A stretch of DNA of 64,000 nucleotides from Selenomonadaceae bacterium (lineage in GTDB: Bacteria; Vulcanimicrobiota; Xenobia; Xenobiales; JADMJV01). A program made the translations under genes and the position numbers. The stretch lies in contig JBBCJA010000018.1 in assembly GCA_037189585.1 (NCBI GenBank), positions 887 through 64,886 on the forward strand, in the 5' to 3' direction. The notes under the pieces are model-generated. The model saw only the letters and a program-made list of their open reading frames with translations, did not search any database and was not told the DNA's origin. Positions 5,537 through 24,256 of this stretch are shown in pieces (the stretch's first letter is position 1; the number at the start of each line of letters is the position of its first letter).

Positions 5537-5611
5537 CGGGGTATAGCTCAGCTTGGTTAGAGTGCTTGCTTAGGGAGCAAGAGGTCCCCAGTTCGAATCT
5601 GGGTACTCCGA
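5537..5611 (+). tRNA. tRNA-Pro with apparent anticodon AGG (A34); CCA not encoded
   Basis: Manual cloverleaf. Acceptor CGGGGTA/TACTCCG (C1-G72) with A73 discriminator, typical of bacterial tRNA-Pro. D-stem GCTC/GAGT. Anticodon stem CTTGC/GCAAG with loop TTAGGGA (U33, anticodon AGG, G37). T-arm CCCAG-TTCGAAT-CTGGG. Confidence 0.8.
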
Positions 5612-20002: not shown

Positions 20003-20608
20003 TTGCCGAAGCCCCCGGACGTGCGGCGAGTTCGAAGGGCGAGAATCTTACTATTTCTGCTACTGGGCACGGGAATCTGTGCCGCAGCGGGATTCGCCTA
20101 TCAGATCTGGCCCAGCCCACGAGAGGCGCTGATCGTCAAGGGAGCTCGAAGCTGCCTGGGCGACATCTACGACTCGGACTACTTCGAGGGAGGGCCTCCT
20201 CCGCGGGGGCGTGGAGCCTGCACCGACGTGGTCTACTGGGCTTATCTACCAACCCTTGACCTTCAATCAGCCGTGGACGAGGACCGCAGGGGGTTGCCCG
20301 AGGCGGCTCGGCTCAAGATCGATCGGAACATCGACTATCGATGGTGCCCGACCTTAATCGGATACTTCCAGCGCCACGCTCTCAGCCTACCCACCGAGGT
20401 CACTTGGCGAACGGTTCTGACCTTTCGCCCGGGCGACGTGATCTTCTACGACGACCACCGAGGGGCGGTCGGACACGTCGGTATCGTCTCAAGCCGATGG
20501 TCTTTTGACGGAAAGCCGCTCCTGATTCACAATCCCGGGCCTCGTGCCGTCGAGGAAAATGCTCTAACTTCGAACAGAATCGTAGGTCACTTCCGACTCA
20601 GAGATTAG
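20003..20608 (+). CDS. Secreted/anchored hypothetical protein (possibly DUF1287-like); non-ATG start
   Basis: N-terminal TM. Conserved C/H residues. Terminator follows. Confidence 0.35.
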   Translation: MPKPPDVRRVRRARILLFLLLGTGICAAAGFAYQIWPSPREALIVKGARSCLGDIYDSDYFEGGPPPRGRGACTDVVYWAYLPTLDLQSAVDEDRRGLPEAARLKIDRNIDYRWCPTLIGYFQRHALSLPTEVTWRTVLTFRPGDVIFYDDHRGAVGHVGIVSSRWSFDGKPLLIHNPGPRAVEENALTSNRIVGHFRLRD

Positions 20609-20611
20609 CCC

Positions 20612-20640
20612 GAGGTCAACCCGGGGTTGACTTTTATGAA
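20612..20640 (+). terminator. Rho-independent terminator
   Basis: GGTCAACCCCGGGGTTGAC perfect hairpin followed by TTTT. Confidence 0.6.
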
Positions 20641-21215
20641 AATTTCCTGAACAGACTTGACAGTTCTTCTCCAAGTCCGTACATTGGACAACGTAGAGTA
20701 ATACCCAGTAGGAAAGTGTAGTCCACCGAAAACGGTTTCACGCCATGTTGAACGCAACGTCACATAATCCGATGCCAAGCCAAGGCTTTCGCTCCGTCCT
20801 TACCGACGGCGGCGTGTCGTCGCTCGGCCACGGCAGGGGACGGAAACTCGGAGGTCGCGCTACCGGCTAGTTCAAAGCAGATAATGCTAAGACGAGCGGT
20901 AGCGCTCATCTCCGAAACAACGTCGGAGGTGGGCGTTTTTCTTTCTCCTCACAACTATCACACCCATGACCTATCGCTCAAATAACGTTCCTACCACGAA
21001 CGAGCAACAGAATAGCTTAGGGCACTCACCCCTCAAGGTCGTGGGGGTGTCCTCCGGGCGAACCTAAAATCGCCAAGTTCTAAGCTCTCGTTCGCGGCCC
21101 GGAGGCCCATGTAATTCGGCCTGGCTGGGGGTGTCCAGGGTCCTCTCCTGGACACCCTCCTAGCCCTCTTATGCCTGGAGTAATACCAATTATGAACTAT
21201 GGACATAGACTTCAT

Positions 21216-21351
21216 GAAGCGGCGGTCTCGCTAGGAGATTCCGGAGGCCTCGCTGGCTGTCGAAGAGCGCTCCCGCTCCGTTAAGGGTGGGCTCTTCGAG
21301 AGCCAACCCGCCTGACCGGAGGTACGGGTGCAAATCCCGTCCGCTTCACCA
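21216..21351 (+). ncRNA. tRNA-like structured RNA element A (candidate Y-RNA-like / tRNA mimic) with encoded CCA
   Basis: 7-bp acceptor GAAGCGG/CCGCTTC, then A-CCA. D-arm-like GTCTC-GCTAGG-GAGAT. T-arm ACGGG-TGCAAAT-CCCGT. The anticodon arm is replaced by a ~23-bp imperfect helix (GGCTGTCGAAGAGC/GCTCTTCGAGAGCC closed by TCCGG-AGGC/GCCT-CCGGA). Confidence 0.45.
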
Positions 21352-21382
21352 TCTCATCTGAGTTCTTTCAAGGAGAAAACTC

Positions 21383-21583
21383 ATGTTGCATCTACGATTC
21401 GAAGGTCGCTCTTACGATATCCCGTCAGAGCAACTACATCTGTCCCAGGCCATCACCGACCACCAGATCCTCGATCGGGTGGCCCGTCACCTCGACGTCG
21501 CGCCGGAGCGACTGCGCCACTACGTGGTCGACCGGCGTCCGAGCGGTGTGGTGATGGTTCGACCCGAGGCCGTCTACGGCTAA
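21383..21583 (+). CDS. 66-aa protein ending in Gly (candidate beta-grasp/Ubl-like?)
   Basis: Strong RBS AGGAGaaaactcATG. ThiS-sized (66 aa). C-terminal ...VYG*. Confidence 0.4.
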   Translation: MLHLRFEGRSYDIPSEQLHLSQAITDHQILDRVARHLDVAPERLRHYVVDRRPSGVVMVRPEAVYG

Positions 21584-21625
21584 ATCGCCCTAAAAATTTG
21601 GTTCGTCTCGAACGCGACCCAACCT

Positions 21626-21715
21626 GAAAAGCTTACATACTAGCTCATCGGTAGAGCGCTCCACACCTAACGGAACGGTTGCGGGTTCGATTCCCGCGTG
21701 TAATCAAAGCTTTTC
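21626..21715 (+). ncRNA. tRNA-like structured RNA element B (candidate Y-RNA-like) closed by a long terminal stem
   Basis: Canonical D-arm TAGCTCATCGGTAGAGC and T-arm GCGGG-TTCGATT-CCCGC. Degenerate anticodon arm. Ends pair as AAAAGCTT-ACAT / GTGT-(AATC)-AAGCTTTT. Confidence 0.4.
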
Positions 21716-21802
21716 TAACTCGCGCGTTCGAAACGAATCTCTAAAGTTGTTGGTCGTCGCGACCTCATCGTGAGAACTTACACACGGATTCCATCCACTT
21801 GA

Positions 21803-23341
<1,539 letters not shown>

Positions 23342-23428: not shown

Positions 23429-24256
23429 GTGCTCAATCTCATCCACAAGATAGCTCGGACTGAAGAAGCTCTCGGCAAGGATCTGATCCTGGCCCCGCAC
23501 CCCCTGGGCGGCAAGGTCCGCGTTCGGATCGACGGTCTGCTTCACGAGTTCGTCTCCGACCCGGCCGACTTCGAGGGTTGGGGTCTTTTCACCGCCGCCT
23601 CCGACCGTGATGCCAGAGTGAAAGAGGTGGCGAGCCTGTCCCAGATCTCGAACTACCTCGAGCGCTTGCCCGCCACCCGGATGGTCCTGGTCAGTCCGCG
23701 GAAGGGCAAGTGCTGGAAGGCCCTACCCGCCAACCGTGACGAGTTCGCTCGTCGCTTTCGGCGAAGCGGTCCGCAGGCGCTGCACCTCGTCGAGCGAGGC
23801 CGCGCCTTCGAGACGGTCATCGCGCGCTTTGACGGAGCCAACTTCTGGTACGACAAGGTCGATCGAAAGACCGACCCTACCCTTCCCAACAAGCTGGGCC
23901 GAGCGCTGCGAGCCTTCACCCCGGCCGAGGAGGTTCGCCTGCCGGGCCTGACCCCGGAGATGCGGGACGTGTATCGTCAGATCCACGACCCCAGCTCTCC
24001 CCAGGCCGTGGCCCGCTGCTCCGAAGCACGCCTGCGACGCGCCTTGGAGCAGGGCGGCGGCTTCCTGGAGTCGTTCACCGATTGTGGCGACTTTTGGAAC
24101 ACCCGCTGGACCACCGGCGATGGCGAGACTCACGTGTCGGCCATTGCCAAAAACGACCTGACCGTGGTCAGCGCTGGTATCTGTCTGTCCGGCGAGGACC
24201 AGAAGTTCGATCTGGCCTCTTTGGTGGGCGTGGTCGAAAGACAAGAGGAGTGGTGA
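23429..24256 (+). CDS. Hypothetical protein (275 aa), middle gene of the operon; GTG start with AAAGGAG RBS
   Basis: The ORF-table start at 23348 lies inside the hairpin, so it is trimmed to GTG 23429. No recognisable domain. Confidence 0.45.
   Translation: MLNLIHKIARTEEALGKDLILAPHPLGGKVRVRIDGLLHEFVSDPADFEGWGLFTAASDRDARVKEVASLSQISNYLERLPATRMVLVSPRKGKCWKALPANRDEFARRFRRSGPQALHLVERGRAFETVIARFDGANFWYDKVDRKTDPTLPNKLGRALRAFTPAEEVRLPGLTPEMRDVYRQIHDPSSPQAVARCSEARLRRALEQGGGFLESFTDCGDFWNTRWTTGDGETHVSAIAKNDLTVVSAGICLSGEDQKFDLASLVGVVERQEEW

Follow-up and report, generated by a model that had tools for sequence, protein, structure and literature searches.

The stretch of DNA analysed here (the window) comprises 64,000 nucleotides (nt), positions 887 to 64,886 of contig JBBCJA010000018.1 (assembly GCA_037189585.1, Selenomonadaceae bacterium), and contains at 21216-21351 a 136-nt element, element A, which is a real and conserved gene for a small RNA of predicted transfer RNA (tRNA) shape. 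This RNA would be unable to decode, as a long imperfect helix (the rod) replaces the anticodon arm. The gene lies in an operon that also encodes a Ro60-like protein, a probable ubiquitin-like (Ubl) protein, a protein with OB-fold domains and an E1-like adenylyltransferase. The explanation that we favour, tentatively and with considerable doubt, is that element A is a non-decoding tRNA mimic processed by ribonuclease P (RNase P), which would act as an accessory RNA of this Ro60-like/Ubl/OB-fold/E1-like system. The system itself is probably induced by stress, namely translation stress.

Direct reading of element A gives the order GAAGCGG-CG-GUCUC-GCUAG-GAGAU-(81-nt helix)-GGU-ACGGG-UGCAAAU-CCCGU-CCGCUUC-A-CCA. 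The 7-bp acceptor stem, discriminator A, encoded CCA and T-arm, which an earlier sequence-only reading of this DNA had proposed, were all found in both the sequence and the fold. Minimum free energy (MFE) and centroid folds agree on one cloverleaf-like structure in which ACCA is single-stranded, and the MFE was -71.1 kcal/mol versus -54.2 ± 4.1 for dinucleotide shuffles (z = -4.09; 1 of 200 shuffles was equally good). The proposed D-arm-like hairpin is present as well, with its GG straddling the boundary of loop and stem rather than lying in the loop alone. The same reading had placed a helix of ~23 bp with a 22-nt loop at the anticodon position; the imperfect helix stands, and its dimensions need correction, as the MFE fold has ~27 pairs and a terminal loop of 10 nt, and a loop of 22 nt is obtained only if weak distal CCC/GGG pairs are ignored. 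Above an invariant base of 5 bp (UCCGG/CCGGA), the rod carries a GA bulge on its 3′ side, then a 4-bp stem and, beyond an internal loop, a helix interrupted by a G.G mismatch. Acceptor pair 3-70 is A3-U70. The T-loop retains U54, C56, R57 and A58, and these residues, together with the GG conserved in the D region of the family, make a tRNA-like elbow plausible, though position 55 is G, not U. The sole canonical tRNA of the window, tRNA-Pro(AGG) at 5537-5611 on the plus strand, does not encode CCA, unlike element A.

Seven distinct versions of element A, including that of the window, were found at lengths of 135-256 nt (window, L082-84, L085, L090, L091/92, L097 and L098; L numbers denote related loci); the six beyond the window come from metagenomic loci. 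Their carriers are close relatives as judged from the Ro60-like protein (75-85% identity), and all seven versions lie on the operon strand, between the conserved leader and either the Ubl open reading frame (ORF) or the next Y-like RNA. When the seven sequences were aligned with the variable distal helix trimmed (alignment A4), 95.8% of the cells formed standard pairs, and controls with slid partners fell to 33-56%. Nine pairs changed on both sides, which was reached by none of 500 shuffles, and these compensatory changes were located in the D hairpin (one pair), the rod base (two) and the rod proper (six). The changes in the D hairpin were C-G to U-A in one pair and G-U to G-C in one, and the acceptor and T stems were without variation in all seven sequences. 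G-U pairs, such as the one between columns 10 and 24 in six of the seven sequences, establish the strand as plus. Comparison of the fold with homologues, a check proposed along with the sequence-only reading, thus supported the helices. A covariance model built from the family (R1) gave 117.6 bits at element A as its sole match in the window, and scored six of the seven members at 100-121 bits, with L097 split into partial matches of 39 and 30 bits. Over 98 sources (805 kb of related loci), R1 matched only ordinary tRNAs beyond the seven members, at 14-30 bits; these cross-matches confirm both the tRNA-likeness and the narrow distribution of element A.

In the 3′-terminal 37 nt, loci share 89-97% identity, as against 44-56% for third codon positions in the adjacent gene and 56-81% for the leader. 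As this identity is far above that of the neighbouring sequence, recognition would be sequence specific and not a matter of shape alone, and the tRNA-like head is, to judge from the alignments, under purifying selection at the sequence level. CCA is encoded in all seven versions, U is at position -1 in six, and the discriminator is A in five, G in one and U in one. Within the rod, a 3′-side GA/GU bulge above the 5-bp base is conserved, as is the G.G mismatch (6 of 7) flanked by CU...UCGAA and UUCGA...AG. The distal rod is unconstrained; at one extreme it is a short hairpin, at the other it holds over 100 nt of inserted sequence, and the insert of L097 extends the element to 256 nt.

The motif GNCGAAN0-1G has been proposed for Rsr/Ro60 recognition in YrlA RNAs, where the Ro-binding strand carries it close to the 5′ end (Chen et al. 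2014, PMC4201824). It is matched exactly in four of the seven versions (window, L091, L097 and L098) and with one mismatch in L090, and is absent from L082 and L085. The match, GUCGAAG, sits inside the rod, not near the 5′ end, and ~0.06 matches per element are expected by chance. It is the sole specific link of element A to Ro60 binding, for which it may be taken as a weak hint. The surrounding GGCUGUCGAAG resembles GGCUGGUCCGAAG, with which vertebrate Y RNAs begin; this is a lead and not a test.

The Ro60-like gene, also pointed out by the sequence-only reading, lies 527 nt downstream of element A on the same strand. Pfam gave only a weak vWA match to its product and missed TROVE, and no sequence match was found in the PDB. 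For the AlphaFold model (predicted local distance difference test score, 77), the 13 best Foldseek matches in the PDB were all Ro60/TROVE proteins (E from 2.6e-12 to 2.3e-9, 459-511 aligned columns, template modelling score ~0.6), and in this predicted structure the protein has the full-length Ro60 fold. It has more than 2,700 homologues, labelled "vWA domain-containing" or "hypothetical" where they are named, and these are spread over cyanobacteria, Armatimonadota, Myxococcota, Actinomycetota and the clade of the window itself, which looks planctomycete-like; identity between the window and cyanobacteria is 60-65%. A tblastn search of plasmids with this protein returned two records, unannotated or uninformative.

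Bacterial RNase P classically recognises its cleavage sites by a 12-bp acceptor/T-arm stack, U(-1) and RCCA. Since element A combines such a stack with U(-1), RCCA and an encoded CCA, its tRNA-shaped RNA is very probably cut out of the operon transcript as a separate molecule. In the mechanism that we propose, transcription would start at the promoter-like site and pass through the attenuator-like leader, RNase P would release element A by cutting at G21216, and the 3′ side would be trimmed to the encoded CCA by exonucleolytic maturation. The rod would take the place of the anticodon arm, with its proximal ~25 bp conserved (GA bulge, G.G mismatch and GUCGAAG) and its distal part variable. As the head and the proximal rod are conserved and the distal rod is not, the conserved part would most simply be a protein-binding platform. 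Like the stems of Y RNAs on Ro60, the rod would most likely dock on the ring of the Ro60-like protein or else on the OB-fold protein, and the tRNA-like head, through its free CCA, would contact a partner that binds tRNA. Element A would thus work like a Y RNA/YrlA tRNA mimic with the connectivity reversed.

The coordinates of element A, its leader and the downstream operon are collected in Table 1.

Table 1. Element A, its parts and the surrounding features of the operon (positions in the window)
Feature	Position	Strand	Evidence or remark
Conserved leader of the element A transcription unit	20657..21215	+	10/10 clade loci
Promoter-like site TTGACA-17-TACATT	20657-20685	+	
Conserved 41-codon leader ORF ending ...GRKLGGRATG (stop)	20745-20870	+	
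Terminator-like hairpin (20901-20937) plus U-tract	20901-20945	+	
Second leader domain, structured RNA	~21020-21200	+	RNAalifold, 8 loci: 48 pairs, 10 with compensatory changes
Element A, tRNA-like RNA gene with encoded ACCA	21216..21351	+	136 nt; fold, homologues, covariation, model R1
Element A acceptor, 5′ strand GAAGCGG, paired with 21341-21347	21216..21222	+	7/7 family members identical; U(-1) in 6/7
Element A D-like hairpin GUCUC/GCUAG/GAGAU: stem 5 bp, loop 5 nt	21225..21239	+	Fold and covariation
Element A long helix (rod) at the anticodon-arm position, imperfect	21240..21320	+	Fold and covariation; distal length variable
GUCGAAG in the rod, match to GNCGAAN0-1G; first G is in the G.G mismatch	21259..21265	+	Read from sequence
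Element A T-arm ACGGG/UGCAAAU/CCCGU	21324..21340	+	Fold; local T-arm match of the tRNA model; stem unchanged in 7/7
Element A acceptor, 3′ strand CCGCTTC (21341-21347), discriminator A (21348) and CCA (21349-21351)	21341..21351	+	
66-aa ORF, C-terminus ...RPEAVYG	21383..21583	+	tblastn, 88 loci; 31 nt after element A
Element B, Y-RNA-like; terminal stem enclosing the tRNA-like module 21634-21703	21600..21745	+	Rfam tRNA 33.8 bits; fold
Element C, second Y-RNA-like stem-loop RNA	21746..21860	+	Fold; nhmmer; signature shared with element B
Divergent Ro60-like protein, 487 aa: helical-repeat ring plus vWA domain	21878..23341	+	AlphaFold and Foldseek
Conserved ~275-aa protein with OB-fold domains (RNA-binding type), no Pfam family	23429..24256	+	
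ThiF/MoeB-type E1-like adenylyltransferase, 211 aa	24261..24896	+	Pfam ThiF E = 2.6e-29; NCBIfam and PADLOC E1 models

Downstream of element A, the C-terminus RPEAVYG of the 66-aa ORF was invariant in 88 loci (tblastn), except for FYG in L095 and IYG in L060. This end and the neighbouring minimal ThiF-type enzyme suggest a ubiquitin-like protein paired with its E1, and the 66-aa protein is probably ubiquitin-like; no E2 or JAB gene was found in the operon of the window or in the close relatives examined. Elements B and C, encoded between this ORF and the Ro60-like gene, both begin CGCGACC...CUUACA, and all the Y-like RNAs of the operon, of which each locus in the window's clade has two to six, start with CGCG[AC]CC...C[UC]UACA. 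The module of element B keeps the unpermuted order of D, anticodon (AC) and T arms, and element B had 172 nhmmer matches in 80 related loci. As Y RNAs, elements B and C are stronger candidates than element A.

Upstream, the leader is kept in all ten clade loci, unlike element A. It looks like a leader-peptide, translation-sensing attenuator, which would turn the operon on when translation is impaired. The end of the leader ORF overlaps a possible antiterminator strand (GCGCUACCG / CGGUAGCGC). The structured second domain had no match in Rfam. Within the leader, CCUCCGGGC (21050-21058) and GCCCGGAGG (21098-21106) could pair as an extra long-range or pseudoknot helix.

Several observations weigh against the favoured explanation. 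L088/89 and L099/100, whose Ro60-like proteins are 81% and 71% identical to that of the window, cleanly lack element A; of ten informative related loci, two in all do without it and a third, L081, has it disrupted. The system therefore works without element A, which is accessory to it. The breakpoints in L088 match the ends of element A to within 1-2 nt. L081 is the closest relative, with a Ro60-like protein 92% identical, and has at 2073-2100, in place of element A, a perfect 28-nt palindrome (CATGAAGCGGCGGT followed by ACCGCCGCTTCATG), made of the first 11 nt of element A and their reverse complement; either the locus has truly been rearranged, leaving an acceptor-stem hairpin, or the Logan contig was misassembled. 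A search by nhmmer with element A found no match in 80 genome loci carrying the operon, which were mostly from cyanobacteria, with some from Chthonomonadaceae, one from a Polyangiales genome and one from an Actinomycetota genome. The GNCGAA match, missing from two of the seven members, has a chance expectation of ~6%, and the covariation comes from seven sequences of a single clade, so that its statistics are limited. Element A also lacks the CGCG[AC]CC...C[UC]UACA signature common to the other Y-like RNAs of the operon, and if this signature is the binding site for the Ro60-like protein, element A would bind something else. An exact-pattern scan of viral contigs and BLAST against plasmid and phage collections found nothing, and a metagenome scan with the Ro60-like protein yielded at least four loci, none with a further homologue of element A.

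Known families were compared with element A by several programs. On the window, ARAGORN called the tRNA-Pro at 5537-5611 only, with no tRNA or transfer-messenger RNA (tmRNA) at element A, and Rfam at gathering thresholds matched this tRNA-Pro and the module at 21634-21703, with no match at element A. Permissive Rfam scans (E ≤ 10 on 20500-22200, and with the element alone) gave local T-arm matches only, of 9-13 bits. The YrlA model RF02553 (gathering threshold, 69 bits) had no match at gathering or at E ≤ 10, in the region or with the element alone; nor did RF00019, for Y RNA of metazoan type, at E ≤ 10, and the ends of element A form an acceptor stem, not the candidate binding helix, whereas in Y RNAs of this type the two ends pair in a terminal stem that bears the conserved bulged helix for Ro60 binding. 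The earlier statement that element A is not a tRNA, tRNA-Sec or tmRNA held, as neither ARAGORN nor the Rfam models make a call, and the suggested comparison with the Y RNA/YrlA, tmRNA and tRNA covariance models gave no match to another known family. Its likening of the topology to a Y RNA/YrlA mimic survived in part: a tRNA-like module is joined to a long helix, and membership of the YrlA family fell with the missing RF02553 match, the unpermuted order and the open acceptor. The searchable literature contained no description of the element A RNA or of an operon for Ro60-like, Ubl, E1 and OB-fold proteins. Element A looks like a tRNA mimic of Y-RNA type, by analogy, with connectivity opposite to that of the known ones.

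That element A is an ordinary member of the YrlA/bacterial Y RNA family is very unlikely. As is expected of YrlA, a Ro60-like gene on its strand lies less than ~4 kb away, although the product has no Pfam TROVE match, and element A combines a tRNA-like module with a helix and the GUCGAAG motif. The consensus order of RF02553 is, however, T arm, closed acceptor stem-loop and D arm, and that of element A is acceptor, D, rod, T and acceptor with open ends; G55 in the T-loop leaves TruB no U55 substrate, the signature of the locus's own Y-like RNAs is missing, and the covariance models for Y RNAs are silent. An ordinary tRNA (RF00005) was rejected, as there is no 7-nt anticodon loop with U33, ~22 further pairs follow the 5-bp base, and the tRNA model gave only a 12-bit local T-arm match. 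Still less probable, to a degree that makes it hardly credible, is an intron-containing tRNA gene or a tmRNA fragment. ARAGORN in intron mode did call two of the seven versions at default settings (Val and Gly, with Pro and Ser added at a lowered threshold), but the anticodons disagree, the introns fall at non-canonical positions 27-36, the inserts of 40-184 nt are not group I introns, and the base of the helix has no anticodon loop of the tRNA kind. A long helix in place of the anticodon arm is found in tmRNA too, and a 13-bit local T-arm match to tmRNA_permuted was obtained; nevertheless, among the tmRNA models (RF00023/RF01851/RF04321) there was no match beyond this, and element A has A3-U70 in place of G3.U70, a true D hairpin, and at 136 nt no tag ORF or room for pseudoknots. 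Feedback of the T-box kind, in which UGGN of the leader would pair with NCCA, was likewise rejected, as no aligned UGGN covaried with the discriminator, a comparison of low power with two variant-discriminator sequences.

Other versions of the operon carry further tRNA-related genes. Arrays of 5-18 canonical tRNA genes, mostly encoding CCA, lie upstream of the Ubl ORF in L095 (26-2142), L022 (119-1639), L031 (109-935) and L025 (14-829), that is in 4 of 88 loci, with the last array tRNA 35-312 nt before the ORF. Long tRNA arrays are thus linked to the Ro60-like operon in a few distant versions. A study of such arrays in cyanobacteria notes nearby RNA-processing genes, with no mention of Ro60, TROVE, ThiF, vWA or tRNA-like RNAs (Santamaria-Gomez et al. 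2021, PMC8421152). At the head of the Y-RNA cluster, L023 (1066-1149) and 13 more loci of cyanobacteria, among them L010 (2608-2691), have an 84-nt RNA similar to the tRNA-like domain (TLD) of tmRNA, with the 5′ end GGGGCCGCGAUUGGUGUUCGAC..., a T-arm and the 3′ end ...CGGCUCCA. Its acceptor stem covaries with G3.U70 always kept, CCA is encoded in 2 of the 14, and it matches weakly the 3′ part of Rfam tmRNA (22.5 bits). G3.U70 is the alanine identity pair.

These genes bear on two rival explanations of element A. In one, which is unlikely and still deserves serious weight, it is an RNase P processing or punctuation element, or a relic array-tRNA gene whose anticodon arm degenerated to a rod, and the released RNA would be functionless. 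It would provide an RNase P site parting the leader from the downstream mRNA and Y-RNA precursor, or would stabilise a transcript end; mascRNA, from the 3′ end of MALAT1, offers a parallel. The CCA-encoding arrays take the same position, element A being 31 nt from the Ubl ORF, the features of an RNase P substrate are all present, and the clean absence from L088 and L099 agrees with an element that can be dispensed with. A signal of shape should, however, tolerate compensatory change, and yet the acceptor and T stems are invariant and the core is conserved far above its neighbours; conservation also extends to the proximal rod, including its bulge and G.G mismatch, for which RNase P has no need. 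Moreover, arrays precede the Ubl ORF in only the four loci, and by eye element A has no similarity to the last array tRNA (tRNA-Pro) of L095. In the other, which we consider improbable, element A is a chargeable acceptor RNA, its CCA being charged by an aminoacyl-tRNA synthetase, for ribosome rescue of the tmRNA/tRNA-like kind or for signalling, or by the E1-like enzyme of the operon. In the E1 version, the C-terminal Gly of the 66-aa protein would be adenylated and then passed to the terminal ribose of element A. The CCA and acceptor stem are invariant, the ORF with the RPEAVYG end adjoins element A in an operon with a ThiF-type E1, and cyanobacterial operons carry the TLD-like RNA with its conserved G3.U70; but pair 3-70 of element A is A-U, the discriminator varies (A, G or U) amid fixed surroundings, which is unexpected for recognition by a synthetase, it has no space to encode a tag peptide, and it is missing from most operons in which the Ubl and E1 genes are retained. 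We know of no precedent for transfer from an E1 to RNA, which also counts against this explanation. Its full form, in which the E1-like enzyme esterifies the invariant C-terminal glycine of Ubl to the CCA adenosine of element A, or a synthetase charges it, and the Ro60-like/OB-fold machinery uses the protein-RNA or aminoacyl-RNA conjugate under translational stress, is very improbable; if true, it would be aminoacylation-like chemistry by a ubiquitin-type activating enzyme.

To our knowledge, no RNA partner of Ro60 has been described apart from bacterial Y RNAs, and those reported to mimic tRNA share one permuted design. Element A, as a candidate accessory RNA of the Ro60-like system, would present a tRNA-like head on a rod beside a Ro60-type gene, with opposite connectivity and a CCA fixed in the genome. 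It belongs to a large unannotated family of Ro60-like operons that also encode Ubl, E1-like and OB-fold proteins, a family which surveys of bacterial Y RNAs based on TROVE would miss. If it binds the Ro60-like ring, element A would offer a handle on the purpose of the tRNA-like module of Y RNAs and on how this probably translation-stress-induced system works. Its significance is tempered by its narrow distribution and dispensability.

Among known systems, mascRNA/MALAT1 and viral tRNA-like structures (TLS), such as that of turnip yellow mosaic virus (TYMV), are also tRNA mimics recognised by RNase P and/or CCA-related enzymes, and the T-loop of the TYMV TLS, GGGGUGCAACUCCCC, resembles CGGGUGCAAAUCCCG of element A; these are, however, eukaryotic or viral and occur in unrelated contexts, and the likeness is limited to the T-arm and is below family thresholds. 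The long tRNA arrays, which are stress-linked accessory tRNA sets (PMC8421152), share with element A the encoded CCA and, in the four related loci, the position upstream of the Ubl ORF, but their members are canonical, decoding and called by ARAGORN, whereas element A has no anticodon loop and is not called. The TLD of tmRNA and the cyanobacterial 84-nt RNA have an ACCA acceptor, a T-arm and a long helix (P2) for the anticodon arm, and are non-decoding, as element A would be. Unlike tmRNA, element A has no G3.U70, pseudoknots, tag frame or model match, and it has a true D-like hairpin.

Yrn1 of Deinococcus radiodurans and elements B and C are likewise non-coding RNAs of Ro60 loci, and their tRNA-like features follow the unpermuted order of D, AC and T. 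Yrn1 and element B differ from element A in that they end in a stem extending the acceptor position, with no free CCA, and elements B and C differ in carrying the CGCG[AC]CC...C[UC]UACA signature. The YrlA RNAs share with element A a D/T/acceptor module joined to a long helix at the anticodon position and a place just upstream of a Ro60-type gene on the same strand; the motif like GNCGAAN0-1G in the helix is at most a weak further likeness. In YrlA, the order is permuted, with T arm, closed acceptor stem-loop and D arm, and the ends lie in the Ro-binding stem (PMC4201824), whereas element A ends in the acceptor and its rod is closed by a loop. TruB modifies the T-arm of YrlA (PMC4201824), and the T-loop of element A has G55. 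CCA is added in YrlA and encoded in element A, RF02553 does not match element A, and the Ro60-like protein associated with it is too divergent for Pfam TROVE. In Mycobacterium smegmatis, RNase P cleaves YrlA in the acceptor loop, after which CCA is added, and the processed RNA has an open 7-bp acceptor with CCA (PMC4201824). By analogy, this YrlA would be the nearest precedent for element A.

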